Positions 14,502 to 42,139 of a DNA stretch of 64,000 nt are shown piece by piece (positions within the stretch are counted from its first letter, which is position 1; each line of letters opens with the position of its first letter). The stretch spans positions 1,536,001 to 1,600,000 of the forward strand of contig CAXXMD010000003.1 in assembly GCA_963675755.2 (NCBI GenBank). The letters are read 5' to 3'. This stretch comes from a bacterium. Lineage in GTDB: Bacteria; Zhuqueibacterota; Zhuqueibacteria; Residuimicrobiales; Krinioviventaceae. The position numbers and the translations under genes were made by a program. The notes beneath the pieces were generated by a model that saw only the letters and a list, made by a program, of their open reading frames with translations, was not told where the DNA came from and searched no databases.

Positions 14502-14588
14502 GGAGAGATGCCAGAGAGGCCGAATGGGGCGGCCTGCTAAGCCGTTGTAGGGGTTTCCCTACCGAGGGTTCGAATCCCTCTCTCTCCG
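14502..14588 (+). tRNA. tRNA-Ser(GCT)
   Basis: GGAGAGA/TCTCTCC acceptor stem; GCGGC-CT GCT AA-GCCGT anticodon arm; long variable arm GTAGGG/CCCTAC; GTTCGAATC. Confidence 0.95.
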
Positions 14589-14987: not shown

Positions 14988-16481
14988 ATGACAAGAACGA
15001 GATTCGCGCCGAGTCCCACAGGTTTTGTTCACATCGGTGGACTGCGAACAGCACTGTACAATTATCTGTTCGCAAAAAAACATGGCGGGACTTTTATTTT
15101 GCGCATAGAAGATACTGACCGCACCCGCTTTGTAGAGGGTGCAACCGAAAACCTGATTTCCGCCCTGAACTGGGCCGGTCTGGTTCCTGATGAAGGTCCC
15201 GAAGCCGGCGGAGATTTTGGCCCCTATTTTCAATCTGAACGTACCGAGCTGTACAAAAAATATGCTCAGGAGCTTTTGGATAACGGCTATGCGTATATCG
15301 CCTTTGATACGCCGGAAGAAATGGATGAAAAGCGAAAATCCACCGGTAACCCGCATTTGAAATATGACGCTTCCATCCGTAATGAAATGCGCAACAGCTT
15401 GAATCTGGATAACGCCCAGGTACAGGAACTGATGGATGCGGAAACGCCACATGTCATCCGATTAAAGATTCCCGAGGACCGTACCTTTACATTCAAAGAT
15501 ATTATCCGTGGCGAAGTTTCTTTCAAGAGCGAACAAGTAGATGACCAGGTATTGATCAAATCTGACGGATTCCCCACATACCATTTGGCAAACGTAGTAG
15601 ATGATCACCTGATGGAGATCACGCATGTGATCCGTGGTGAAGAGTGGCTCAGCAGTGTTCCCAAGCATATCTATCTGTATGAATGCTTTGGCTGGCAGGC
15701 CCCTGAAATGGCGCATCTGCCGCTGATTCTGAATCCGGACAAATCCAAAATGTCCAAGCGCGACATCCAGTCGCTCGACGATTTGCCCCAAGGCAAAGTA
15801 GACCCGGATGTGGCCTCTTATGTGAAAAAAGGATTCGAACCGGAAGCGATCATAAATTATATAGCCTTACTGGGTTGGAATCCCGGTGAAGGCGATGAGC
15901 GACAGATCTTTACAAAAGAAGAGCTGGTGAACGAGTTCTCGCTAGAGCGCGTAAACAAGGCTGCGGCTATTTTTGATCTGCGCAAGTTGGAATGGGTAAA
16001 CGGCGAGCACATTACCCAACGTGATACAGCAGAGCTGGTTGAACAGGTAAAACCCCAACTGGCTGAAAAGGGACTGGATTATGGTTCCGAAGCGTATTTG
16101 TATCAAGTTGTGGACCTTTTAAAATCCCGCATGTTGTTTGTGGACCAGTTTGCCGTACTGGGGGAATATTTTTTTAAAGACCCGGAACAATATGATCCGC
16201 AGGTCGTAAAAAAAAGGTGGAAAGACGATTCAGTAAAATTAATACTTGAATTTGTTGATGAAATTGTTAAATTAGATGTGTTTGATAAAGAGTCGATTGA
16301 AAAAGCCCTCCATGTGGTGACCGAGCGAAATGAAGCCGGTACAGGTCGACTGATACACCCGGTACGGTTAGCGGTTTCCGGAATGGGTGTAGGTCCGGGA
16401 CTCTACGATATGTTGGTAGTCCTTGGTAAAGAAGCGGTGACAAGACGGCTGAAAGCAGGAGCTGAAGCCATTACACGTTGA
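14988..16481 (+). CDS. gltX: Glutamate--tRNA ligase
   Basis: RTRFAPSPTG..HIGG, LRIEDTD, YHLANVVDD, IRGEEW, KMSKR. Confidence 0.97.
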   Translation: MTRTRFAPSPTGFVHIGGLRTALYNYLFAKKHGGTFILRIEDTDRTRFVEGATENLISALNWAGLVPDEGPEAGGDFGPYFQSERTELYKKYAQELLDNGYAYIAFDTPEEMDEKRKSTGNPHLKYDASIRNEMRNSLNLDNAQVQELMDAETPHVIRLKIPEDRTFTFKDIIRGEVSFKSEQVDDQVLIKSDGFPTYHLANVVDDHLMEITHVIRGEEWLSSVPKHIYLYECFGWQAPEMAHLPLILNPDKSKMSKRDIQSLDDLPQGKVDPDVASYVKKGFEPEAIINYIALLGWNPGEGDERQIFTKEELVNEFSLERVNKAAAIFDLRKLEWVNGEHITQRDTAELVEQVKPQLAEKGLDYGSEAYLYQVVDLLKSRMLFVDQFAVLGEYFFKDPEQYDPQVVKKRWKDDSVKLILEFVDEIVKLDVFDKESIEKALHVVTERNEAGTGRLIHPVRLAVSGMGVGPGLYDMLVVLGKEAVTRRLKAGAEAITR

Positions 16482-16511: not shown

Positions 16512-16582
16512 TGGGGTGTCGTCCAGCGGCAGGACACATGACTCTGGCTCATGGAACCGGGGTTCGAATCCCTGCACCCCAG
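16512..16582 (+). tRNA. tRNA-Gln(CTG)
   Basis: TGGGGTG/CACCCCA acceptor stem; CATGA-CT CTG GC-TCATG anticodon arm; GTTCGAATC. Confidence 0.95.
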
Positions 16583-16592
16583 CACAATACAC

Positions 16593-16617
16593 AAGGTCGG
16601 TATATCCGGCCTTTTTG
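16593..16617 (+). terminator. Rho-independent terminator after tRNA-Gln
   Basis: AAGGTCGG-TATAT-CCGGCCTT followed by a T-run. Confidence 0.7.
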
Positions 16618-16672
16618 CGTTTTTGGGGGAACTGTGTTGCACCTCCCTGAGGTATCATAAAAGTATTACAAA

Positions 16673-16703
16673 GATCGTGACAGAGATTATCTCCGTCACG
16701 ATC
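16673..16703. repeat. 31-bp palindromic repeat, copy 1
   Basis: GATCGTGACAGAGA-TTA-TCTCCGTCACGATC. Confidence 0.9.
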
Positions 16704-16728
16704 AAATGAAAAGGGGGATAATAAACTG

Positions 16729-17049
16729 ATGAAATGGCCCGATACAGCAGACGGAGATGTTTTTAGAAGACTTGAAGGCGATAACTTTGATTTTACCAAG
16801 GAAGCCACTATTGACATAAACATTGATTTTGATCATTGGCCGTTATCTACTGAATGCATTCAATTTATGATAGCCCATTGGCCTGGTATTGAGATTATTG
16901 AACCCGAAGAAGATGATTATGGTTGGGCAACATTCCAAATCCGGACTCTACTCACTTATGAAATGATAGTAGATTATCAAATTAAAGTTTCAGAAATGAT
17001 ATCTCCCTATGGAGGAAGATGTGAATCATGGGGGTTGTTCAGCTCTTAG
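16729..17049 (+). CDS. Ribonuclease E inhibitor RraB-like small acidic protein
   Basis: WPDTADGDVFRRL...FDF...IDINIDF...YGGRCESWG pattern. Confidence 0.6.
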   Translation: MKWPDTADGDVFRRLEGDNFDFTKEATIDINIDFDHWPLSTECIQFMIAHWPGIEIIEPEEDDYGWATFQIRTLLTYEMIVDYQIKVSEMISPYGGRCESWGLFSS

Positions 17050-17283
17050 TTAGAAGTTAACCAAAACCTAAATAATTCTATCTGTAACAAAAACAAGTAC
17101 GGCTACGAGGTTGGATTTCCAGCTTTTTTTGTTTTGGGGGAAACAATTTTCTTGGGGATATAAAAAGTTGAATTATGTTCATTTTAATATTGACATTGAC
17201 GCTGGTAATTATTATCTATAATAAATCATTCCATTTAGGGGTTATTAGAGTTATAAAAAAGTTTTAAAGAATTGGAGGGTAAG

Positions 17284-18378
17284 ATGAATCGAGTATGTTT
17301 ATTGCTCATGGTGTTTGTATTGGTATTCACATTTTCATGTGAGAAAAGAGATACAGTTGTAAACGCTGTATATCAAGCGGATCAACTGCAATCAATCACA
17401 AATTCATCGACTGAGGATCTTGGTACACTGATTTTTGAATCTGATCCAATAATCAGGGGAAAGGGTGCACCTGTAACTGAAGAAATTGTCCTTCCGGGTT
17501 TTGATCCTAATAATAATTATGTATTGGTTTTAACCAATGGAGATGAAAACAAGGGGAGTAAGGTAACCAGCTGCTTTGTGATTTTCAATGGAGATACTAT
17601 TATATGTCCTATAGAAATCACAAAAGACACAGAAACGATTGTTAAAGAATTGACAATCGCTGATGAAAACGATTTATCTGCAAGAGTTATGGGTAAACCG
17701 GATAGCTATATAATACTATCGATTTACGAAGAATGTGCTCTTTGCCCACCAACAGTAACTGATATCGATGGAAATGTTTATGAAACTGTTCTGATTGGTG
17801 ATCAGTGTTGGATGAAAGAAGATTTAAATGTTGCACATTATCGAAATGGTGATCCAATTCCTAACGTTACGGATAATTCACATTGGAGTGCTTTGAGTAC
17901 TGGTGCATATTGTTATTACGAAAATAATTCAAGTAATGCTGAAGATTATGGGGCAATGTACAACTGGTTTGCTGTCAACGACGAACGTAATCTTTCTCCG
18001 CTTGGTTGGCACGTGCCTACAGACGAAGAGTGGAAAAAACTTGAAATGTTCCTGGGTATGAGCACAAGTGAAGCAGATGGTTCCAGTTGGAGAGGAACAG
18101 ATGAAGGAGGAAAATTAAAAGAATCAGGTACATCACATTGGTATAGTCCGAATATTGGTGCTACTAATGAAAGTGGATTTACGGCACGTCCTGGAGGCAA
18201 TCGTGTTTATCATGATGGTACATTCAATAGTATGGGATTGTCTGCTGGTTATTGGTGTTCTGGTGAGAGTAGTGATAGTGAAGGCTGGTTGCGATCATTG
18301 AGTCCAGATAATGCACAAATTCACCGGTCCCCTTATCCTAAAAATCAAGGTTTGTCATTAAGGTGTGTTAAAGATTGA
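17284..18378 (+). CDS. Lipoprotein with C-terminal Fibrobacter succinogenes major paralogous (FISUMP) domain
   Basis: Lipobox FSC; VTDIDGNVYETV.IGDQCWM, YG.MYNW.AV, P.GWHVPTDEEW, GLSLRCVKD; GGAGG RBS. Confidence 0.88.
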   Translation: MNRVCLLLMVFVLVFTFSCEKRDTVVNAVYQADQLQSITNSSTEDLGTLIFESDPIIRGKGAPVTEEIVLPGFDPNNNYVLVLTNGDENKGSKVTSCFVIFNGDTIICPIEITKDTETIVKELTIADENDLSARVMGKPDSYIILSIYEECALCPPTVTDIDGNVYETVLIGDQCWMKEDLNVAHYRNGDPIPNVTDNSHWSALSTGAYCYYENNSSNAEDYGAMYNWFAVNDERNLSPLGWHVPTDEEWKKLEMFLGMSTSEADGSSWRGTDEGGKLKESGTSHWYSPNIGATNESGFTARPGGNRVYHDGTFNSMGLSAGYWCSGESSDSEGWLRSLSPDNAQIHRSPYPKNQGLSLRCVKD

Positions 18379-18386
18379 TAATTAAT

Positions 18387-18427
18387 TTTTTGATCTCTAT
18401 TTGACTCTCGTCTAATAGAGATCAAAA
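18387..18427. terminator. Hairpin terminator after the FISUMP gene
   Basis: TTTTGATCTCTATT...AATAGAGATCAAAA inverted repeat. Confidence 0.6.
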
Positions 18428-18457
18428 TGGGTAAATTAAAGGAGATTATTAGAAAAG

Positions 18458-18664
18458 CTGGATCATGGAACCAATGGGGCCGCAGGTCCGCCCACCGGCG
18501 GAACTTGTCCGCCCGCTGGCGGATTCGAATCCCTGCACCCCAGCACAATACACAAGGTCGGTATATCTGGCCTTTTTGCGTTTTAGGGGGAACCGTGTTG
18601 AACTTCCCGGATGTGTTATACAAGTATTACAAAGATCATGACGGAGATCATCTCCGTCATGATC
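18458..18664 (+). repeat. Direct repeat of tRNA-Gln 3' half plus downstream flank (att-like), interrupted by a double-hairpin insertion; includes palindrome copy 2 (18634-18664)
   Basis: CTGGaTCATGGAACC...TTCGAATCCCTGCACCCCAGCACAATACACAAGGTCGGTATATC matches the tRNA from 16544 onward; similarity continues through the palindrome. Confidence 0.9.
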
Positions 18665-18874
18665 AATATTTCATAAATACGTTAAAATGGAATGGTACGA
18701 TCCGGATTGGGGCAGTAAGATTTAGTAAAAATTTTTAAAGGTGATTATGGGGAGTAATGTTGGTGTTTCTTAGATAAGCCCCGGCCACGAGGACGGGGGT
18801 ATGGACAATGGACTGCTATAAAGAATCATTTGCTCAATTTTGGTGAATAGAAATGTTAGGTTTAATAATACAGA

Positions 18875-19588
18875 TTAAAATCCATCACACAAATCCATTC
18901 TAACTGCCAAGTGAAGTGATGATAAGAATTCAGTGGTTTTTGATAATGTATCTAAAATATCTTTTAGTGTGTCATAATCATAGATGAATGTATCAATGAT
19001 TTCGTCATCTTTATCTGACATAACAAAAATTTTTGATGAACGTTTGTCAGTATGGCTTTGTTTTATCACTGCTTCTGTGGCAATTGATTTCATTGAGGAT
19101 TTCATTTCATCTAATTCGGGACTTGTTAGAATTGGATATCTAAAAAACGTACTTCTCTCATCAACTTTATTTATTTTTTTAATCATTTCTAAAAGATCAT
19201 CAGGTACTTCCCAAATTGTTCTTGTATGCTTCTCAAGGGGTTCTTTGTATGTAATAAATAGTTTGAGCACATATTGATATAAAAACTCAATGTTGTGAAT
19301 TTTAGTTAGAGGTCTCCAATTACCTTTTACAAGGATTTCTGGTTTGTCAGAATATTTTTTCTGACTTGTGATAATCTTAAAGGTCTTGTGAAATACAGTT
19401 ATGATTGATTTTAGATATAATTCAATTGAATGTCTAAGCAAATAGCATATTGGTAGTTTGATATTGTACAATTTGTCAGTTTCTTCAGAAGATGATAAAA
19501 GTTTGGATGCTGCATCTCTAAAAGAGTCAGCAGTTGCACCAAAGCCCGAATCGAAATGCTTGTTTATAGGTAAGAAAATATAATGCAT
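18875..19588 (-). CDS. Hypothetical protein, HEPN-like
   Basis: PICYLLRHSIELYLK, KIHNIEFL and FFRYP resemble HEPN-fold proteins; AT-rich. Confidence 0.55.
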   Translation of the reverse strand: MHYIFLPINKHFDSGFGATADSFRDAASKLLSSSEETDKLYNIKLPICYLLRHSIELYLKSIITVFHKTFKIITSQKKYSDKPEILVKGNWRPLTKIHNIEFLYQYVLKLFITYKEPLEKHTRTIWEVPDDLLEMIKKINKVDERSTFFRYPILTSPELDEMKSSMKSIATEAVIKQSHTDKRSSKIFVMSDKDDEIIDTFIYDYDTLKDILDTLSKTTEFLSSLHLAVRMDLCDGF

Positions 19589-19625
19589 AAATTTGGCAAT
19601 CTACTAATAGTTAGTTACTCGGATA

Positions 19626-19816
19626 AATCTCTGCATCACACAAGGTTGGATTTCCAGCCTTTTATTATTTAAGGAGCTGCAGTTGCTTGGTGGACCACTG
19701 GCCCATCATTTGAAAAACAGTTGATTCGAATGATCGTGACGGAGATCATCTCCGTCACGATCAATACTGTGGTTTTGTTTATGTGAGTCCCGGCCACACA
19801 GGCCAGCCTATGGACT
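19626..19816 (+). repeat. Degenerate module: tRNA remnant, terminator, palindrome copy 3 (19732-19762), CCCGGCCAC box
   Basis: AATCTCTGCATCACACAAGGTTGGATTTCCAGCCTTTT; GATCGTGACGGAGA-TCA-TCTCCGTCACGATC; GTCCCGGCCAC...TATGGACT. Confidence 0.8.
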
Positions 19817-19817
19817 T

Positions 19818-20405
19818 TTAATACCCATCGTTGGGGTGCGTTTTTATTTTATAGTTTTCAAAGAATTTCTTTCTGTCTTTCGGCCTTTTAAGCAATTGAA
19901 GTTCAGCATGTAGCAATTCCTTTACCTGCTCATATCCATTTCTTTCAATTTTAAATACTCTCCTAAAGCTCTCCGATAAATCACTTGTACATCCAATAAT
20001 ATTTATAGTCGGATATTCTGCTATATAAATTCCCCAATTCTTACTCTGGCCGTGAACAAACCAATGGGGTATTCCCATTCCAAAATATTCATCAAACTCG
20101 TGAAATTTGTTGTCAAATTCTTTTAGGTCACTCTTTACGGAAAAGGTAGCTTCAAATGGTATTTTTCTGTCTGTTATCGTTGCTCCGATGTTTTCTTTAA
20201 CGAAAAACCTGGATTCTCCAATTTCAATAAGGAGTTTTATAAATTTATTATATTCTTCATCATCTTCAACCAGATGCCCACCCACAGTTAGCAGAAAATC
20301 GAAATCTTGGTTTATGAAAACTTGTTCTGGTGGACAAATAACTTTGTCAGGAGATTGAGCAACGTTAAATATTTCTGATGTATTTGTCATTTTTAAATAC
20401 ACCAT
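19818..20405 (-). CDS. Hypothetical protein
   Basis: 195-aa ORF with GGAGG upstream on the minus strand; no recognisable motif. Confidence 0.7.
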   Translation of the reverse strand: MVYLKMTNTSEIFNVAQSPDKVICPPEQVFINQDFDFLLTVGGHLVEDDEEYNKFIKLLIEIGESRFFVKENIGATITDRKIPFEATFSVKSDLKEFDNKFHEFDEYFGMGIPHWFVHGQSKNWGIYIAEYPTINIIGCTSDLSESFRRVFKIERNGYEQVKELLHAELQLLKRPKDRKKFFENYKIKTHPNDGY

Positions 20406-20674
20406 AATTTTTGAAAATGTATTTTTATATTTATACCTCCCAATAGGCTGTATAAAAGCATTTTAATATATGGAATAAGAAATAAATAAAAATGAAATTT
20501 TACTTTGGGTATGATTTTAGTTAATCATATTTTTGGAAAGAGTCAATAGGAAAATATACATTTTTACTAAAAAACTGTGTAGAGGGTCAAGGACTGTACT
20601 ATCTTGAGTGTATCTGTGGTTAAAGTTTTTATCTATATCTTACTTAAGCTGTAGCGTCCGTATTTTATCTAAAA

Positions 20675-20705
20675 GATCGTGACGGAGATGATCTCCGTCA
20701 CGAGC
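20675..20705. repeat. 31-bp palindromic repeat, copy 4
   Basis: GATCGTGACGGAGA-TGA-TCTCCGTCACGAGC. Confidence 0.9.
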
Positions 20706-20745
20706 GGGATTGTTATTTGTTCACGTTTCGAGACTCGTATCATAT

Positions 20746-20778
20746 CACCTCCCGGAGGTCCCGGACCTCCGGGAGGTG
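20746..20778. repeat. Second REP-like perfect palindrome
   Basis: CACCTCCCGGAGGTC-CCG-GACCTCCGGGAGGTG. Confidence 0.8.
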
Positions 20779-20965
20779 TGCCAGACTTGAAAAATGTGAA
20801 ACAATTGGTTTACATACACGTAGAGAGAAAAAGAAGGTAAATGTATTCATTGCACAAATACAGGATAGCATACAGGGATTGATAAAAGATAAATAGTTTA
20901 TAACAAAGTCAAAAAAACAAGATGGAATCGCTGAGAGTTTCTCGCGTGATTCCGGGGATACGAAT

Positions 20966-21682
20966 ATGTCAAAAAGAGTTGAACATAAAGCGCCTCAAGC
21001 AAACCTGGTTCGCCAATGGATCCGTTTAATAGTGGTGTATCTCTTGATCCCTTTGGTTCTGTTGGTGTGCGGAGGCGATTTTGGTTGGTGGCAGGCATGG
21101 ATCTATGCTTTGCTGATTGTTGCCGCGGGTATTGGCGGACGTATTTGGGCGGAACGGCGGCATCCGGGGTTGCTGGCAGAACGACAAAACATGGAAAAAA
21201 TCCAAAGTGCGAAAGCATGGGATAAAGTGCTTGCTCCGCTCATGGCGCTGAGTGTAAGCTTTCCACTGGTTATAGTGGCGGGATTGGATCACCGCTTTGG
21301 TTGGTCACCCGCATTGCCGTTATGGCTTGTTATTTTCGGTATCATCCTGATAACGCTCGGATACGCTTTCTCCATGTGGGCATTTGTAGAGAACCGATTT
21401 TTCTCCAGCGTTGTGCGTATTCAAGCGGATAGAGGTCATGTGGTGTGTGATAGCGGTCCCTATCGACTGGTTCGGCATCCGGGTTATTCCGGAACGATTT
21501 TGCCATTGTTGGGTATTGTGCTGGCCCTGAGCTCCCTGTGGACACTCGTTCCGGCTGCTGTAGCACTGATCATCTCGGTGATCAGAACCGCGTTAGAAGA
21601 CCAAACATTGCAGCAAGAGTTGCCAGGGTATAAGGAATATACGCAGCGCGTACGCTACAGGCTGTTTCCAGGGATTTACTAA
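20966..21682 (+). CDS. Isoprenylcysteine carboxylmethyltransferase-family (ICMT/PEMT) membrane protein
   Basis: ENRFFSSVVRIQ.DRGH.V...GPYRLVRHPGY; ED..L..EL.GY.EY..RVRYRL.PGIY. Confidence 0.88.
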   Translation: MSKRVEHKAPQANLVRQWIRLIVVYLLIPLVLLVCGGDFGWWQAWIYALLIVAAGIGGRIWAERRHPGLLAERQNMEKIQSAKAWDKVLAPLMALSVSFPLVIVAGLDHRFGWSPALPLWLVIFGIILITLGYAFSMWAFVENRFFSSVVRIQADRGHVVCDSGPYRLVRHPGYSGTILPLLGIVLALSSLWTLVPAAVALIISVIRTALEDQTLQQELPGYKEYTQRVRYRLFPGIY

Positions 21683-21771
21683 TAGGCCCTTAATTTTGTG
21701 ACTGTTGGTATACTGGGAACTCATCCGGATTTAAATAGACTCTCTAAAAGAGAACTGATAATCTAAATCCA

Positions 21772-22809
21772 TCACTCCCGGGGTTTTGCAATCATCATGT
21801 TCAGATACGCTGCAAAGTCTTTTGCAACACCATCCTTTTGATTGATGTAGGTTTGCATGTGTTTGTTCTCATCGGGAATCCATTTACATCCTTTATCAGG
21901 ATCAAAGTCTAAATAGCCGGTTCCGCTGTTTATCAAATAATCGCCAACGCCTTCAACCGCATAATAAACCGTGGCCAGGTCCCAGCTTGGCCTTTGGTCA
22001 TCAAGCGTTTTCTTGCCATACCACCAAAGCCAGTCCCGATAGGCGGTACGGATGATATTGCCGGCAGGTGTCTGTTTTAAGGATTTACCGGTCATCACAT
22101 CAGCACCGGCATCCACAAAAACCATAGGCACCGGTAAATTGTCGATTAGATATTTTGTAAAGGGAGCAGTGCCGTTTTTAAAGAAATTCCAGTCTTGTGT
22201 GTATTCTCTTTTTTTATTGTTTGCGCCAAGCGCACCCAAAGCCACCCAGCGACGGACTTTGGTTCGGACCAGTTCCAATCCGCTCAAAGGCGTTATGGCA
22301 TCTCCTTCCGAAACCAACAGATCATACAATCCCTTGGTATGGCCCACGGTAATATAGGTCACGCTATGGTCCGGCTGTTCTAAAAGTAATTTCCTGTTCA
22401 GTAGTGTTTGTTCAACAGCATCGGTGTTGGATATGATGGTATTGCCGAAAGCATCGGTGTCTTTTACCAGCTTTTCCGCACTCATTTTATCCACGCTATC
22501 ACCAACATCGTCTTTATAGTTCGCACCCACGGGTATCTCGGGCCGGCCACAATAGATATTGATTGCCTGCACAATTCCCGCACCATAGGGTACTTTGCCC
22601 GAGCTATATATAGATCCAAGAATTTCAACCTTGCCCATATCCGCATAGGTATGTAACAGGGCCAGCGCTCCTACATCATCACAATCTGATCCCATATCCG
22701 TATCGAAAATGATTTTGACAGGTTCTGTAATCGATTTTAAATCCGTTTGTGCTAAAACACCAAAATGAGGGATTAACATCAAGAGTAATAAAAGACTGAT
22801 TTTTTTCAT
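21772..22809 (-). CDS. Secreted nucleoside hydrolase-like protein
   Basis: Signal peptide; IIFDTDMGSDCDDVGALA; RPSWD. Confidence 0.8.
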   Translation of the reverse strand: MKKISLLLLLMLIPHFGVLAQTDLKSITEPVKIIFDTDMGSDCDDVGALALLHTYADMGKVEILGSIYSSGKVPYGAGIVQAINIYCGRPEIPVGANYKDDVGDSVDKMSAEKLVKDTDAFGNTIISNTDAVEQTLLNRKLLLEQPDHSVTYITVGHTKGLYDLLVSEGDAITPLSGLELVRTKVRRWVALGALGANNKKREYTQDWNFFKNGTAPFTKYLIDNLPVPMVFVDAGADVMTGKSLKQTPAGNIIRTAYRDWLWWYGKKTLDDQRPSWDLATVYYAVEGVGDYLINSGTGYLDFDPDKGCKWIPDENKHMQTYINQKDGVAKDFAAYLNMMIAKPRE

Positions 22810-22846
22810 GTAGAAGCCTCGATATTCTTGTTCAGTAAAAAATCCG

Positions 22847-24358
22847 TTATGGTTTCTGCGGATTAAACTGAGAGCAGCGGAACGTGTGTTTTTCAAGTTC
22901 CGTTCCTGCCTCATTTATCAGACGAAATGTTACTGTGGGATCCGCTTTTTTCATATCAAAAGTGAATTCACCAAAAGCGATCAATCCGCCGGCGTAACCA
23001 AAAAGCTGTGCCGATTTGTCCGGGGCAAAAGCATCCGGACCGGGAACACCGCCCAGGGTTGCGGCTTCGAATTCATGCAGCGCAAAACCCGATGGCCGTT
23101 CAATCTTGAAACTGCGTGCGCCGTGACGGTCGCCACTCAAAAGCAATACACCGCCTATCTGGTTCTCTTCAATAAAGTCATAGATCTCTTCTCGTCCCGG
23201 AATGTCCCAACTGCCCCACGAGTCTTTTGCTTTGGACATAAAGTCGCTCCACATGGTCCCGCTGGTCAGTATGATAAACCGGGCTTTGGACGCCTTGAGT
23301 GTATTCTTGAGCCATTGCATTTGCTCATCGCCAAGGTAGGATCCTCGCTGTTCCCGTTTTTGCCAGTTTCGGCAAGAGCGGGTATCGAGCATGATGATTT
23401 CCACATCGCCAATGACGGTGTTGAAATAGATCCCGTGGTCTGTGACTGATGTCTGGGGATTAGCCCAGTTTTCCTGCCAGAGTTTCCGCAGCGCGTTGCG
23501 CTGAGTGTTTGTTATCTGACCTTTTTGAAGTCCGGATTTGTCATTGTTCAGATAATCGTGATCATCCCAGCTGGTATAGACCGGAATGTTGGCAGAAAAT
23601 GTCCGCCACGGTTTTGAAACGTCGCGTAATAGATAATCCGCATAGTGCATATTGGAGTTGGTTTCCCGGTCATCCACTGCGATATCACCCAATAACAGCA
23701 TGGCGAGATTGCCGCGCTCTACAATCAACCGCATCAAATTGGGATTGTGTACACCGATCTTATGATAGCAAGAACCAAAGGCAATGCGCATGGTGTCTGT
23801 GGTATTCGGTTCAGGAGCTGTGCGAAAAGAGCCATTACCTAAAACAGCATCTGCATTGTTAACGATTTGGTAGAGGTATGGGGTGTTTGCCGACAATCCG
23901 GTAATCCTGACCCGGGTGGCCGCACCGGGCTGGGTGACCTCGACATTGAAATCCTTTTGCTGTTTTTCTTCCTTATCTGTTATTTTTACGGTTAATGCTT
24001 CTGCGTGGACCGCACGGAACCAGAGGGTAATACCGCTCTCAGAAACATCACCCAACATCGGTCCGCTGATGAGGGCAAGTCCGGCTTTTTTAGCTGCCTC
24101 AATGATCCCTGGATGGGTAAGTGTTGCGTCAGGAGTTTCGACAAGGATTTCACGGGCTGATAGGTAAAAAGTACGTCGCGCTTCCGGCAGGCGTTCAAAA
24201 CTGTCCAAAAGCAGTGTATCAATTTCCAGGCTGCCTACGTGTGCTTGTTTGAGGGATACAATATGGGTCGCCGTATCCGGTGTCGATTCAGCGTAGATGG
24301 ATGAGGTAAACAAACCCCAACATAGCATGAGGCAAAGTATATTCAAACGAAAGTTCAT
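22847..24358 (-). CDS. Alkaline phosphatase D (PhoD)-family metallophosphatase
   Basis: IAFGSC, LLGD, WDDHD, LDTR, LSGDRH motifs; signal peptide. Confidence 0.88.
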   Translation of the reverse strand: MNFRLNILCLMLCWGLFTSSIYAESTPDTATHIVSLKQAHVGSLEIDTLLLDSFERLPEARRTFYLSAREILVETPDATLTHPGIIEAAKKAGLALISGPMLGDVSESGITLWFRAVHAEALTVKITDKEEKQQKDFNVEVTQPGAATRVRITGLSANTPYLYQIVNNADAVLGNGSFRTAPEPNTTDTMRIAFGSCYHKIGVHNPNLMRLIVERGNLAMLLLGDIAVDDRETNSNMHYADYLLRDVSKPWRTFSANIPVYTSWDDHDYLNNDKSGLQKGQITNTQRNALRKLWQENWANPQTSVTDHGIYFNTVIGDVEIIMLDTRSCRNWQKREQRGSYLGDEQMQWLKNTLKASKARFIILTSGTMWSDFMSKAKDSWGSWDIPGREEIYDFIEENQIGGVLLLSGDRHGARSFKIERPSGFALHEFEAATLGGVPGPDAFAPDKSAQLFGYAGGLIAFGEFTFDMKKADPTVTFRLINEAGTELEKHTFRCSQFNPQKP

Positions 24359-24493
24359 CTAGTATGTCCTTTGGTTGTTTTATAGGCTAACAGAGTAAAG
24401 GTTAATTAATTATATTTTTGTTTAAGAATCAATAAAAAAGAATGTGTCATGTTGAGGTTGGAATTACTGATTTGTATATCGGGAGACGGACTT

Positions 24494-24528
24494 TTTATCG
24501 TGACGGAGATTAACTCCGTCACGATAAA
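24494..24528. repeat. Palindromic repeat, copy 5
   Basis: TTTATCGTGACGGAG-ATTAA-CTCCGTCACGATAAA. Confidence 0.88.
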
Positions 24529-24585
24529 TGAACACTGAGAAAGGATTATATGATAAGCGCGTTTAAACGCATGACAGACAATGGA

Positions 24586-25665
24586 TCATTTTGCGCTGTT
24601 TTGATTAATAACATAATGGGTTTCTGTTGGGAACGCCATTTCAATACCGGCTTCATCCAGGTTGCGTTTGATGCCCATATTGACCTTATGAACAATGATC
24701 TTCCAGTTACTGCTGTCCGTGATCCAGTAGACAATTTCCAGATCGAGAGAAAAAGCGCCAAAGTTGGTAAATCTGACCTCGGTATCGTCGCTGTCTATAC
24801 CTTCTACCTCGGCAATGGTTTTTTTAACAATATCTATGGCTTTATCCATATCATCTGCTGTTGTTTCATAGACCAGACCAATGTTCACCACCATCCGGCG
24901 TCGCTCGCGTTTGGAATAGTTTTCCACAACGGTATCCACAATAGCGCTGTTGGGGATAACTACATGCGTACCGCCTACGGTTTTGATGCGGGTGCTTCGC
25001 ATACCCACTTCAAGTACAGAACCGGATTTGCCGCTGATTTCAATCCAGTCGTCAATCTGGAACGGCTTGTCCCAAAAGATGGTAATACCACCGATAATGT
25101 TCTTAACTGCGTCCTGAGCTGCCAGAGCAATGGCCAAACCACCAATACCAATACCGGCCAGAATGGACAATATATCATATCCCAGATTAGACAGGATGAT
25201 GATACCTCCCAGAACCAGAATAACCGTTTTCACGGATTTACGGACGATTGGCAGAATCTGGTCGTCAAGTTTGCTTTTTGATTTTTCGGTAATAGGTTCG
25301 ATGTAAGCGGTGATCAGCATGTCAAAAAACCGTACCAGAAACCAGGTAGCTGTAATTGCAAGCAGGGTAATCACTACATTATGAAAAAACTTTACTCCGC
25401 CTTCATTCAGTGTCAGAAATCGGGCGCCAACCCAAACACCACCACTGACGATCAGCAGAACAATGGGTTCTTCTATAATATCAATGAGATAGTCATCGAA
25501 TTTGGTTTTTGATTTTAGTGCAATTCTACGCAATGAAGTTTTAAAGAAAAAATAGACAATTCTGCCTAATATAATTGACAATACAATGGCGCCGCTTAGC
25601 AGTAGATACTGACCGACTGAATTATTGAACACTGTATAGTCAATAACATTCCGGATAGATTCCAT
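24586..25665 (-). CDS. Small-conductance mechanosensitive channel (MscS family)
   Basis: AGIGIGGLAIALAAQD..KN..GG, KPFQIDDWI, GMRSTRI, IPNS, IEMAFPT. Confidence 0.92.
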   Translation of the reverse strand: MESIRNVIDYTVFNNSVGQYLLLSGAIVLSIILGRIVYFFFKTSLRRIALKSKTKFDDYLIDIIEEPIVLLIVSGGVWVGARFLTLNEGGVKFFHNVVITLLAITATWFLVRFFDMLITAYIEPITEKSKSKLDDQILPIVRKSVKTVILVLGGIIILSNLGYDILSILAGIGIGGLAIALAAQDAVKNIIGGITIFWDKPFQIDDWIEISGKSGSVLEVGMRSTRIKTVGGTHVVIPNSAIVDTVVENYSKRERRRMVVNIGLVYETTADDMDKAIDIVKKTIAEVEGIDSDDTEVRFTNFGAFSLDLEIVYWITDSSNWKIIVHKVNMGIKRNLDEAGIEMAFPTETHYVINQNSAK

Positions 25666-25987
25666 ATGAACTCCCTTTTTATTAAAGAATGGATTCCAAT
25701 AGTTTAGATAGATTTATATTTAAGAAAGGTTTTCTTGCATATCAGGACTAGCGTCCCTTTATTTATATCATTCTTTCCTTTAAAAAATATAATGTATGAA
25801 AAAAAAATATCAGGATAAATATTTATTTTATTAATTACACTGACAGATTTACAAGTTGGTAAACAGGGTACTATAATGAATGAAAAATTTTGAATAGTGG
25901 ACTGCTTAGCCGGGGAATCGGGTTGTAGAGATTGCTGTTGGGAGGATAGGCCGTACCAAACAGCCTTTATAAAAAGTTAATTCGAAA

Positions 25988-26018
25988 GATCGTGACGGAG
26001 ATACTCTCCGTCACGATC
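25988..26018. repeat. 31-bp palindromic repeat, copy 6
   Basis: GATCGTGACGGAGA-TAC-TCTCCGTCACGATC. Confidence 0.9.
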
Positions 26019-26041
26019 ATACTATAGGTAAATATACAGCT

Positions 26042-27103
26042 TTAGATTAAAATATTACGTGCATAGTTAACACATGTCCTGGTTTCTTTGACAGAATTTG
26101 ACCAGGCAGCGATTCTGTATTCCAGTTCAATATCACAATAGATTTGGGGGTATTTGTTTTTGATCAATAACAATATTTCTTCCAGTGGTGTATCACCCTG
26201 TCCCCAAACCTGGTTTGCATTGGGTGGTTCTGTATTGAGACCGGTTTTATCTTTGATGTGCAAACTGTAAATCCGATCATGATATTTTTCAATAAAATCA
26301 CAGGGATTAAGTCCGGTTGAACCCCAATAGTGGCCAACATCAAAATTCAGCATAATACCAGGTGAAACGGCAAGAATGTCATCTACGTTGAAACCTTCTT
26401 CTGCATATTGATAATGATTATGCATGACAGCATACAAACCGTATTTTTCAGCAATCGGGCCCATTTTTTTGGCGGTTTCCAGTCTCATTTCTTCCGTGAT
26501 TCCCATTACATTCATGGCTTTGTTAGCTTTGAATGCATAGTCAATTTCTTCCGGTGACCAGCTAGCTGGTGTCCATTTCATAAGATGAATGTTTACTCCG
26601 GCATCCCGATACATTTGTGCAAGTTCAGCAAATTTATCCATAGGAGCGGATAAACGCCACTGTTTTAAGGCTTCTCTTGAATCTGCGGCCTGTTTTTCAA
26701 GCTCTGCATATTCTTCTTCGGTCAAATCCCGTTCTTGTTGCGCTCTGTACCGTTCATATCCTCTTTGCCCGGGTCTTGGTGGGGCACTTTTTAATTTGGG
26801 TGCGCCACAAAATTCTTCAGCAAGGTTTGTCTGCCTGAATTCTATGGAACTTAGGCCTGCTTCAATACATGCTTTTAGCAGTTCGTCCACATTTGATGGA
26901 TTGATTCCACGAATACTATAAGTTGAGGCGCCTATCTGTACACCGCCAAATTTAGAGTTGGGTTTTCCGACACCGGTGGCCATTGGTGTTGGTTTGGAAG
27001 AACAACCTGTAGTCAATACACCCGCAGTCAAGACGGTTGCTGCGGTGCCTGCTCCAATAAATTGGCGTCTTGATACGTTACCTTTTCCCTTGTTTTTTTT
27101 CAT
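26042..27103 (-). CDS. Tat-exported sugar phosphate isomerase/epimerase (xylose isomerase-like TIM barrel)
   Basis: SRRQFI twin-Arg signal; HNH, NFDVGHY, LHIKD, WGQGDTP, IELEY. Confidence 0.85.
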   Translation of the reverse strand: MKKNKGKGNVSRRQFIGAGTAATVLTAGVLTTGCSSKPTPMATGVGKPNSKFGGVQIGASTYSIRGINPSNVDELLKACIEAGLSSIEFRQTNLAEEFCGAPKLKSAPPRPGQRGYERYRAQQERDLTEEEYAELEKQAADSREALKQWRLSAPMDKFAELAQMYRDAGVNIHLMKWTPASWSPEEIDYAFKANKAMNVMGITEEMRLETAKKMGPIAEKYGLYAVMHNHYQYAEEGFNVDDILAVSPGIMLNFDVGHYWGSTGLNPCDFIEKYHDRIYSLHIKDKTGLNTEPPNANQVWGQGDTPLEEILLLIKNKYPQIYCDIELEYRIAAWSNSVKETRTCVNYARNILI

Positions 27104-27340
27104 ATTCGACCCTTTAAATTTGGATTGAAAATTATATTGAGATTAATTATGTTCGCATGGATGAAAAGTTTTATTTTTTAAAATACATATACTTTTTAAT
27201 ATATACAATATCTTGTCTCATCGCAATAAAATAAACATTTTTTCGCCAGGAGATTTTAATCACCGGTTGAGGTTTAATCCTATATGTTCTTTAAAGAGTT
27301 GCTATTATAAATGAGGCTGACTGCTTGATAACGGACGAAT

Positions 27341-27558
27341 TTAAATCCCTGCGTCCTGGCTCAATGTCTAAATAAACTGAAATAAACGATCGTGACGGAG
27401 ATTGTCTCCGTCATGATCAATCTTGTAAAACATGGTCTAGTTAATATCCTGACAAAATGAGAAATGTAAAATAACGGATCTGGAGAGTAATGATTGTGTT
27501 AACAGATTTTTTATAATTCATAGGTATCAACCCCGGCCACAAGAGCCGGGTTAGGGAT
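27341..27558 (+). repeat. Degenerate module: tRNA remnant, palindrome copy 7 (27388-27418), spacer, CCCCGGCCAC box
   Basis: TTAAATCCCTGCGTCCTGGCTCAAT resembles TCGAATCCCTGCACCCCAGCACAAT; GAGTAATGATTGTGTT resembles GAGTAATGTTGGTGTT near 18752. Confidence 0.75.
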
Positions 27559-27560
27559 TT

Positions 27561-28400
27561 TTATTTCTTTTTCATAAGCTTGTAATGAATATCAGCAAAG
27601 AGTTCATGTCCCACAGATTCCGAATGGCATGGTGTGCAATTCATCTTGCTGCTTATATTTGCCACTTTACCTTCTTTTCCATGACAGGTTATACATGTTG
27701 TAACGGGTTCGTTTGCATTCCCGGATGTCATAAAGTCATTGTTAAAAAATTGATTAAGCATGGTAACTGTCTGGTATACCACATCAGCGGTCAACCTGCG
27801 GCAGCGTTCCTTTTGTTCTTTAGATTTAATTGCATATCCACTTGTATTACTCCAGTTTGTGGTTGATGCATGGCAAAGTACAGAATTAGAGAGTGATGTA
27901 GGTGGAGTGAATTCCAGTAAAGGTTTAACCGGACTAAATTGAGGAAGCGGGGTTTTTTCGTACCATTGATACAAACTTTCTATCAGGTAGTCTTGATTGG
28001 GTTTGTCTTTTACTAACAAGCCAATAAGGGCGGCCGCTCCATTAAGTGCACCACACACCGTACCATATCCACCAATACCTCCATGTCCGTATTTCATCAT
28101 TTCGCAGGGGAAATTACTAAATGGCTCACCCACTTGATCAGCCAGTTTTGAGACAACACTTTTAAAGGTGGCGTACATACAGCTTCCCTTGTCATAGCTA
28201 TTATATGCCAGCTCGGCTGCAGCCAAAGGATCTAATTGACTATAGGGCCAGGAATGTTCTTCATCATTATGGGTCAATTTTTTGGGAGATTCTGCGGGAG
28301 AAACTTGAGGTTTAAAAGCAGTAGTGAGAGTGACCACACTAACAGCACCACCCCCTACAATCGCTCCGCTTAATATTTTAAATAATTTACGACGCTCCAT
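27561..28400 (-). CDS. C-GCAxxG-C-C family protein / split-Soret cytochrome c-like precursor
   Basis: MERRKLF Tat-like signal; GSCMY, GTVCGALNGAA, VLCHAS, ERC.RLTAD; two CxxCH motifs (CITCH, CTPCH). Confidence 0.82.
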   Translation of the reverse strand: MERRKLFKILSGAIVGGGAVSVVTLTTAFKPQVSPAESPKKLTHNDEEHSWPYSQLDPLAAAELAYNSYDKGSCMYATFKSVVSKLADQVGEPFSNFPCEMMKYGHGGIGGYGTVCGALNGAAALIGLLVKDKPNQDYLIESLYQWYEKTPLPQFSPVKPLLEFTPPTSLSNSVLCHASTTNWSNTSGYAIKSKEQKERCRRLTADVVYQTVTMLNQFFNNDFMTSGNANEPVTTCITCHGKEGKVANISSKMNCTPCHSESVGHELFADIHYKLMKKK

Positions 28401-42054: not shown

Positions 42055-42084
42055 GAATGCTTTTTTATTATGTATAATAAAAAA

Positions 42085-42113
42085 AACGTGACAGAGAAAA
42101 CCTCTGTCACGTT
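42085..42113. terminator. Terminator between convergent GxxExxY and GH3 genes, resembling the palindrome family
   Basis: AACGTGACAGAG-AAAAC-CTCTGTCACGTT with a T-run on the minus strand. Confidence 0.7.
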
Positions 42114-42139
42114 AAAATTCGAGTATATTTTTCTAGTAT

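Follow-up and report, generated by a model that had tools for sequence, protein, structure and literature searches.

The window analyzed here is a stretch of 64,000 nt on contig C3 of the 6.48-Mb genome of a bacterium of the Krinioviventaceae (G000, the source genome), which we compared with the genome of its sole congener (G001, the sister genome). Downstream of its tRNA-Gln gene, unrelated genes alternate with spacers that hold a 31-nt palindrome, GATCGTGACGGAGA-N3-TCTCCGTCACGATC, pieces of the sequence following the tRNA, and a second hairpin with the 9-mer CCCGGCCAC. A preliminary description, made from the letters alone, had read the spacers as copies of one composite module and the whole as an integron-analogous array of genes acquired at a locus-specific att-like site. 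The sequence features claimed for this array are largely real and the observation is partly confirmed; the interpretation as a whole is partly supported. Judged by its sequence, the palindrome is a repetitive extragenic palindrome (REP) of a genus-specific family that has a REP-associated tyrosine transposase (RAYT) of the cognate type. Gene families were assigned with Pfam, tRNA genes with ARAGORN and Rfam, and the RAYT family with NCBIfam. Open reading frame (ORF) calling was crude, which bears on all ORF-free and extragenic counts given below. The features are listed here by window position.

16512-16583, plus strand: tRNA-Gln(CTG), the anchor after gltX (14988-16481); ARAGORN, Rfam tRNA 58.3 bits
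16584-16672, plus strand: terminator-like hairpin and spacer downstream of the tRNA, the template part of the repeated module
16673-16703, no strand: REP copy 1, loop TTA; colinear homology with the sister genome stops at 16705
16729-17049, plus strand: RraB-like gene (Pfam), in a unit absent from the sister genome
17105-17145, plus strand: terminator-like copy, by alignment to the template
17272-18378, plus strand: FISUMP gene (Pfam), in the same absent unit
18458-18633, plus strand: displaced tRNA-Gln remnant with anticodon-loop fragment, ~50-nt insertion, T-arm to 3' end, terminator and spacer (nhmmer E 7.5e-38)
18634-18664, no strand: REP copy 2, loop TCA; right flank to 18806 orthologous to the flank of the sister genome's first REP
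18780-18806, plus strand: CCCGGCCAC hairpin copy 1
18875-19588 and 19818-20405, minus strand: two low-GC ORFs with no family; between them a terminator-like copy (19627-19676), REP 3 and CCCGGCCAC hairpin 2
19732-19762, no strand: REP copy 3, loop TCA
19789-19815: CCCGGCCAC hairpin copy 2
20493-20765, no strand: conserved non-coding block, 91% identical to the sister genome overall, holding REP 4
20675-20705, no strand: REP copy 4, loop TGA
20966-21682, plus strand: ICMT/PEMT-family gene (Pfam); segment 20766-21765 is missing from the sister genome, which has 32 nt there
21772-24358, minus strand: nucleoside-hydrolase-like and PhoD-like genes, common to the sister genome
24496-24526, no strand: REP copy 5, loop TTA; neither flank related to the sister genome
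24586-25665, minus strand: MscS gene (Pfam), colinear with the sister genome
25988-26018, no strand: REP copy 6, between the MscS and TIM-barrel genes; same place in the sister genome
26042-27103, minus strand: TIM-barrel gene (Pfam), colinear with the sister genome
27388-27418, no strand: REP copy 7, loop TTG
27524-27550, plus strand: CCCGGCCAC hairpin copy 3; colinearity with the sister genome resumes at 27507
42084-42114, no strand: degenerate REP outside the island, equally placed and degenerate in the sister genome

The variable island behind tRNA-Gln

The island begins at a stable anchor, since the order tRNA-Ser, tRNA-Ser, gltX, tRNA-Gln is retained in all seven relatives' loci scanned. 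On both sides the window is colinear with the sister genome (1-16705 at 92% identity and 27507-63998 at 90%), and the 53 kb of flanks contain no gene-scale differences between the two, all six being located in 16706-27506. This bears out the array of variable genes that had been proposed. The visible difference in GC content of the cargo is also real, with 30-37% over 16.6-20.8 kb against 43-48% in the flanks. Pfam recovers most of the gene names first given (RraB, FISUMP, ICMT/PEMT, PhoD, MscS and TIM barrel); the nucleoside hydrolase falls below the cut-off, the "HEPN-like" ORF has no family match, and the "split-Soret cytochrome" corresponds to C_GCAxxG_C_C. The preliminary description had called the array integrase-less, and no recombinase is encoded at the locus in either genome: none of the 44 window ORFs or the 12 ORFs of the sister locus matches PF00589. 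The source genome has four PF00589 genes elsewhere, and no tRNA genes are listed near them. Searches with 14 proteins of the island and its downstream region found none encoded within 1.5 kb downstream of tRNA-Gln in seven loci of other genera, all of which the gltX query matched.

The RraB-like and FISUMP genes form a unit of ~1.96 kb that sits exactly between two copies of a 146-nt module, where the sister genome has a single module. Left of the REP, this single module shows 4/113 differences to the tRNA-proximal window copy and 8/113 to the distal one; beginning with the right arm of the REP, a three-way alignment places it with the distal copy. The pattern, which involves small counts, is compatible with a crossover close to the REP and also with loss of the stretch between the repeats from the sister genome. 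Across 18807-20492 the sister genome has instead an Abi_C gene and a gene for an 835-aa helicase-like protein. The ICMT indel begins ~50 nt from REP 4. An extra 1.74 kb lies between the hydrolase-like and PhoD-like genes of the sister genome, with an alpha/beta hydrolase gene, a hypothetical gene and a REP exactly at the segment edge. At the REP 5 site the sister genome has 1.78 kb made up of a tRNA remnant module, a REP and a gene for a 381-aa protein with a type IX secretion system (T9SS) tail, and at the REP 7 site it has 2.18 kb with a MazF-like toxin gene, a REP and a second 381-aa T9SS-tailed gene. Identity between these two paralogous genes is 79.5% over the stretch that extends from within the REP to the start codon, and beyond it they have nothing in common. 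The claim that genes are gained or lost at module boundaries holds in part: the RraB-like and FISUMP unit is bounded by the 146-nt repeat, and indel ends in general are at no fixed position relative to the palindrome.

The 146-nt direct repeat (16560-16705 and 18521-18666, 90% identity) comprises the tRNA from the T-arm to the 3' end, the terminator-like hairpin, the spacer and the palindrome. It runs 122 nt past the tRNA and stops exactly at the REP edge. A direct repeat of the tRNA 3' part, as expected at the far boundary of a tRNA-targeted island, is thus present. The distal copy also has a fragment of the anticodon loop and stem at 18458-18473, in which 14 of 16 bases match, followed by the ~50-nt insertion (18474-18520), which consists of two TCCGCC-N4-GGCGGA hairpins in tandem. 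This hairpin repeat also adjoins a REP near 478.65 kb on C3 of the source genome.

A template of the tRNA 3' part and terminator was aligned locally with each spacer, using 300 shuffles per spacer as control. The spacer 18379-18633, which contains the remnant nearest the tRNA, scored 171, and this remnant is the best preserved. Spacers 17050-17271 (score 31) and 19589-19731 (score 32) exceeded all 300 shuffles each; their matches cover the terminator part (16589-16631) and not the tRNA. The tRNA remnant that had been placed at 27341 was not distinguishable from chance, the spacer 27104-27387 scoring 19 (p ~0.11), and the spacers at 20675, 24496 and 25988 have only the palindrome in common with the module. 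The window therefore has one 146-nt duplicate and two terminator-only copies. Of the composite module as first described, the seven palindromes, these duplicates and the three CCCGGCCAC hairpins remain, and the tRNA end is lacking in most spacers. No tRNA-Gln remnants were found in the genome outside the locus. The sister genome has a second tRNA-remnant module (nhmmer E 2.9e-11) at a place where the window keeps a REP only. Statistically supported tRNA-Gln remnants thus number only two per genome, and the other modules match the terminator or the REP alone.

Several further observations concern the same region. The ~180 nt to the left of REP 4 (20493-20670) are near-identical in the two genomes, with surroundings at 87-94% identity, and could correspond to a small RNA or to regulatory sequence. 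Rfam matched only three tRNAs in the window and the antisense strand of one tRNA-Ser, leaving the hairpins and this block without a match. The antisense match (14537-14588, minus strand, opposite tRNA-Ser(GCT)) is to "Plastid-psbl-rps4 3UTR RNA" at 69.3 bits and is almost certainly spurious, since the model itself includes an antisense tRNA. The CCCGGCCAC 9-mer occurs 20 times in the genome and takes the hairpin form three times in the window and once elsewhere. We considered it as a link to an integrase, and discarded it; a recombinase gene does lie 4 kb from the other hairpin-form copy (C3:608976), but this copy is simply an ordinary terminator whose flanks are unrelated. The 381-aa T9SS-tailed protein was uninformative as a tracer of REP-linked copies, being one of a paralogous family of more than 150 members. 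In public reads the stretch was present in two runs of one sample, as contigs breaking at repeats. One read contig joined 16704 to 19721, with 26 letters on the shorter side, inside a repeat, and this joint shows nothing about excision.

The REP family, its transposase and its orientation

Seven copies of the palindrome are present in the window at up to three mismatches and none in 100 shuffles. As single-stranded DNA, each forms a hairpin with a perfect stem of 14-15 bp and a loop of 3-5 nt (-11 to -18 kcal/mol, z -6 to -10). The palindrome is not specific to the locus, as had been assumed when it was called att-like. A 25-nt core was found 46 times in the source genome at up to four substitutions and not at all in the reversed genome; at up to two mismatches there were 44 copies in the source genome, 30 in the sister genome, none in 28 other relatives and one near-match in another (G023). 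The family thus has 44-46 copies in the source genome and 30-34 in its sister. Scanning 185,579 species genomes for the exact core gave 13 matches in the record of the sister genome and one elsewhere; viral contigs gave none and metagenome contigs three single matches. All of these scans together added only five stray single matches, and those in metagenome and viral contigs were too few to extend the set of relatives.

Among the 46 copies, 42 lie outside ORFs of at least 90 aa, most of them 10-150 nt past stop codons. Of 44 copies, 20 have G:C at stem position 7 and 19 have A:T, the remaining 5 being mixed. Pairing is Watson-Crick in 455 of 484 stem cells, with 26 compensated and 29 uncompensated changes; the hairpin stem is maintained by paired, compensatory changes. 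The flanks are A-rich on the 5' side only (T-rich on one strand), and the foot is a paired GATC. The degenerate copy at 42084 is an old, vertically inherited one. All but two of the 46 copies are on C3 between 0.48 and 2.53 Mb, within ~1 Mb either side of the skew origin, and most copies of the sister genome are likewise within ~1 Mb of its skew origin.

A half-site scan of the source genome revealed a dense cluster around one Y1 transposase gene. This gene (C3:340671-341204, 177 aa) matches the RAYT family NF047646 with 116.4 bits, above the cut-off of 80, and Pfam Y1_Tnp with 39.8 bits. About 25 hairpins of the form GATCGTGACGGAG-15 nt-CTCCGTCACG lie within 2.5 kb on both sides of it, and their 13-nt stem is identical to that of the window hairpins. 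Genome-wide, the stem halves GTGACGGAG and CTCCGTCAC are separated by 5 nt in 33 cases, by 14 nt in 29 and by 15 nt in 23. Because the stem is identical and occurs with several loop lengths, the window palindrome is the short-loop member of a RAYT-bearing REP family. The preliminary description had suggested looking for a transposase or tyrosine integrase beside the same module; an HUH-type gene does lie beside hairpins of the same stem, in their long-loop form, and no tyrosine integrase is at the locus. At E <= 1e-5, 19 of 31 genomes match the RAYT, counting the source genome and a remnant in the sister genome, and the homologues in 17 further relatives have ~40-45% identity.

Within the RAYT cluster (L045, C3:338000-345000), the main REP takes turns with hairpins of another type, CGCAACGGAG-14 nt-CTCCGTTGCG, the repeat unit being ~80-230 nt long. 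Other candidates for the transposase of this family were rejected. Three further PF01797 genes of the source genome (C3:1821632, C3:2392867 and C2:1359786) are not flanked by the palindrome. Among PF01797 matches in the sister genome, L036 has no hairpins of this family. The other, L037 (371998-375159), is a Y1 transposase gene with GTAGGGAACGGTC-TCA-GACCGTTCCCTAC hairpins on both sides; it is a classic GTAG-type REP/RAYT pair, unrelated to the REP family of the window.

The loop centre is the only asymmetric base of the REP hairpin and can be used to orient each copy. The cumulative GC skew of C3 turns at ~1.485-1.49 Mb. To the left of this skew minimum there are 22 purine centres (TAA in 20) and 4 pyrimidine centres, and to the right 5 purine and 13 pyrimidine centres (TTA in 4, TCA in 7; Fisher 3.4e-4). 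When clusters within 12 kb are collapsed, the purine to pyrimidine ratios are 11:0 and 1:7 (Fisher 1.6e-4). The sister genome shows 15:4 and 4:11 around its skew minimum near 6.03 Mb (Fisher 0.0047), although many of these copies are orthologous and thus not fully independent of those in the source genome. In tandem gene contexts, REP orientation tracks the replichore and not the strand of the neighboring gene. The switch at the skew minimum means that the lagging-strand template carries the T-pyrimidine-A loop. As a side observation, dnaA (C3:1609043-1609531) is ~120 kb from the skew minimum at ~1.488 Mb, so the origin of the source genome is probably not beside dnaA.

This replichore-dependent orientation fits a spread on single-stranded DNA at replication forks by Y1 chemistry. 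In the accessible text of earlier studies, Y1 transposases act on the lagging-strand template in a single-strand, fork-coupled manner (PMC3333891, PMC6006769, PMC3971601), and Bertels and Rainey describe tandem REP arrays that are oppositely oriented on opposite sides of the SBW25 genome (PMC3116915). For singleton REPs we did not find replichore orientation in the literature searched, which did not extend to subscription papers and supplements; it has been shown for IS200-type elements. The switch seen in two genomes provides in-genome evidence that this REP family spread on the lagging-strand template.

Gene turnover at REP edges and its possible causes

For a comparison at larger scale, the origin sector of the sister genome (2.08 Mb) was aligned to C3:430001-2600000 (2.17 Mb), which gave 201 blocks whose ends are placed to within a few bases; 20,000 random ORF-free positions served as control. 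In the source genome 9 of 44 REPs, and in the sister genome 8 of 34, have an edge no more than 5 nt from a block end, 7-8 times the control frequencies of 2.8% and 3.0% (binomial 3e-6 and 6e-6). For a distance of up to 60 nt the counts are 20/44 and 14/34, and controls are 16-17%. Of the 44 REPs of the source genome, 26 fall outside the aligned blocks, 7 mark a block edge and 11 are internal to a block; the corresponding numbers among 34 in the sister genome are 20, 5 and 9, and 36% of ORF-free positions are unaligned. A REP stands at the corresponding place in the sister genome for 29 of the 44 copies, 11 are without such a counterpart and 4 are at inversion edges. Gap lengths differ by kilobases at ten REP sites common to both genomes.

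The offsets of indel breakpoints from the REP vary from 0 to 60 nt with no fixed position. There is also no cargo polarity in the two genomes, with the REP close to the 3' end of a strain-specific segment in 9 cases and to the 5' end in 11, and with 7 and 5 for block-edge REPs; an apparent same-end pattern seen by eye (4/4) was overturned by this systematic count. The cargo at REP sites includes IS256-, IS5- and IS3-like insertion sequence (IS) elements, a C5 methylase with a TdeIII endonuclease, ABC-3C, KAP NTPase, Abi_C and MazF. Four of 15 copies of the two commonest IS elements of the sister genome are within 50 nt of a REP. The available parts of earlier reports describe REPs as IS targets in other bacteria (PMC1525189) and as lying mostly downstream of ORFs (PMC3733652).

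Three side observations come from the same sector. IS256-like (7 copies) and IS5-like (8 copies) elements with 96-100% identity are present in the sector of the sister genome and absent from the aligned sector of the source genome, which points to a recent IS expansion in the sister genome only. An inversion of several tens of kb lies beside the origin (C3:1469133, position 11137 of L032, versus 6.06-6.12 Mb in the sister genome), with one end inside an 89-nt gap holding a REP and three further REPs at inversion edges. At C3:953298-955187 (L030) a 1.84-kb insert specific to the source genome comprises three units that are headed by a REP, contain small ORFs and are each followed by a repeat rich in CGCAGAG; it is bounded by a promoter-like direct repeat of ~50 nt.

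We consider it probable, at roughly two chances in three, that genus-specific REPs and a hypervariable island at 16706-27506 behind tRNA-Gln together account for the apparent array, through ordinary gene turnover and not a dedicated integron-like machine. This explanation takes in what the comparisons established: the identity of the palindromes as REPs, their replichore-dependent orientation, the confinement of differences to the island and the coincidence of REP edges with breakpoints. The spacers of the island contain REPs and decaying duplicates of the tRNA-downstream module, and genes would enter and leave by ordinary routes that favor REP or module sites. One such route may be recombination between repeated modules or REPs, leading to deletion, duplication and inversion; others may be replacement through conserved flanks after horizontal transfer, and mobile DNA inserting beside hairpins. 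The displaced remnant would go back to one or more old integrations at the tRNA-Gln anticodon loop. Since the sister genome keeps 30-34 REPs and is equally variable without an intact RAYT, RAYT activity is not needed for the observed gene turnover.

Some points weigh against this explanation of ordinary turnover among RAYT-derived REPs. An unpaired GTAG/CGTC tag at the REP end was not seen in the flank analysis, nor were inverted REP doublets of the REPIN or BIME kind, the copies being singletons or, next to the RAYT, direct tandem arrays. Hairpins on either side of the RAYT have the 15-nt long loop, and the short-loop form is tied to them only by the identical 13-nt stem; in the sister genome this query found a 50-residue remnant and no intact copy. 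The breakpoint controls are unmatched for distance to gene ends, and clustered REP copies are not independent. With only one sister genome, gain is not distinguishable from loss. Finally, the 146-nt repeat ends at a REP edge and breakpoints are enriched there, so REPs could be active recombination sites and not just markers.

Another possibility is tandem accretion, in which a tyrosine integrase, since lost or supplied in trans, inserted elements serially into the anticodon loop of tRNA-Gln and displaced the 3' halves, with the REPs as passengers. We regard this as unlikely. It would explain why the remnant at 18458 starts at the anticodon loop (14/16 bases) and reaches the 3' end, why this best-preserved remnant is the one nearest the tRNA, why a second remnant module lies elsewhere in the island of the sister genome, and why the unit between the repeats is missing there. 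However, neither version of the locus encodes an integrase, and the four PF00589 genes elsewhere have no tRNA gene listed nearby. The repeat also continues 122 nt past the tRNA to a REP edge, the two supported remnants per genome leave the other modules with matches to the terminator or REP only, and the 4/113 versus 8/113 differences run, on small counts, opposite to the expectation for a crossover in the tRNA.

The REPs themselves might instead be gateways of gene flux, extruded on the lagging-strand template; the RAYT or a nuclease of the host would nick them at the foot, and foreign or neighboring DNA would be joined there. The excess of breakpoints, the inversion ends at REPs and the replichore-polarized orientation would all follow, and the REPs behind tRNA-Gln would then act like an integron without an integrase, collecting defence, toxin-antitoxin and surface-protein genes. 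We find this distinctly unlikely. Slightly more doubtful still is the stricter version in which the hairpins are cut-and-join sites of mobile cassettes for the RAYT or another single-strand nuclease at forks, making an integron-like array without an integrase. REP edges within 5 nt of breakpoints at 7-8 times the control speak for it, as do strain-specific segments ending at a REP edge (the alpha/beta-hydrolase unit of the sister genome, L031 and L032), the paralogous 381-aa genes that have REP and coding region in common and nothing past the start codon, and an orientation that fits single-strand chemistry. Yet the cargo side is inconsistent, breakpoint offsets range up to 60 nt, no cassette occurs at two REP sites except IS elements with their own transposases, and the sister genome lacks an intact RAYT. 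That 29 of 44 REPs are in place in both genomes also indicates that they are mostly old and immobile. The same positional conservation, the clustering within ~1 Mb of the skew origin (44/46 in the source genome and most in the sister genome), the preference for 10-150 nt past stop codons and the T-rich flank on one strand could suggest host-selected sites unrelated to gene flux, which bind a chromosome-organizing protein of the origin domain or act as 3'-end RNA hairpins. This is highly improbable given that orientation tracks the replichore and not gene strand, the same stem forms tandem arrays around the RAYT gene, none of 28 other relatives has the family (at two mismatches) and copies decay in place.

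The explanation by REPs and ordinary turnover removes an apparent new recombination system: the att-like palindrome becomes a REP, and the array a tRNA-linked variable island. The integron analogy does not hold, for want of an integrase, an attC-like structure or cargo polarity. Of the observations that the preliminary description itself would have taken as refuting it, half hold: the palindrome is scattered genome-wide without tRNA remnants, yet module-bounded indels do exist. Because REP edges are strongly enriched at breakpoints, inversion ends and IS insertions, REPs are practical markers of plasticity in this little-studied uncultured lineage.

Comparison with known systems

Integron arrays (IntI, attI, attC) also consist of unrelated genes separated by a folded palindromic site, with content that varies between close relatives. 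Unlike integrons, the locus described here has no IntI or attI, carries genes on both strands, uses a hairpin that is dispersed over 2 Mb and shows no fixed junction. An attC site is an imperfect palindrome with extrahelical bases and an R/L box layout, whereas the window hairpin is perfect and has neither. Closer to the window are tRNA-linked integration islands, which likewise start at a tRNA 3' end, contain a displaced 3' half from the anticodon loop, have low GC and vary in content between relatives, with presence or absence exactly at repeats. The present island differs in that it has no integrase, its repeat runs 122 nt past the tRNA to a REP, and most of its internal boundaries are a REP or terminator copy only.

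The neisserial dRS3 repeat is linked to phage integration. Neisserial mosaic elements (dRS3/RS) and REP-targeting ISs resemble the present case in that palindromic repeats mark intergenic hot spots of strain-specific DNA or ISs, although dRS3/RS belong to a different sequence family and lineage. In the accessible text of one survey, dRS3 is classed as a CGTC-type REP (PMC3733652). IS200/IS605 elements have distinct left and right ends, unlike the sequences studied here, in which no such ends and no cargo polarity were found; they are similar in the Y1 HUH enzyme family, in single-strand hairpin recognition and in replication-direction orientation, as far as the available portions of PMC3333891 and PMC3971601 describe them.

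The system that most of these features recall is REP/RAYT, as in E. coli (REP-BIME with TnpAREP) and Pseudomonas (REPIN-RAYT). An unpaired GTAG or CGTC tag at one end marks REPs in the portions of PMC3733652 available, whereas the present hairpin has a perfect 14-bp stem, a 3-nt loop and a paired GATC foot. Its copies are singletons or direct tandem arrays instead of inverted doublets and are confined to ~1 Mb either side of the origin, where the loop orientation flips, and the sister genome keeps its REPs without an intact RAYT. In common with REP/RAYT systems, the family is a short extragenic hairpin in tens of copies with paired changes in its stem, its copies are mostly past stop codons and limited to a single genus, and a Y1 gene that scores above the NF047646 cut-off lies inside a cluster of the hairpins.

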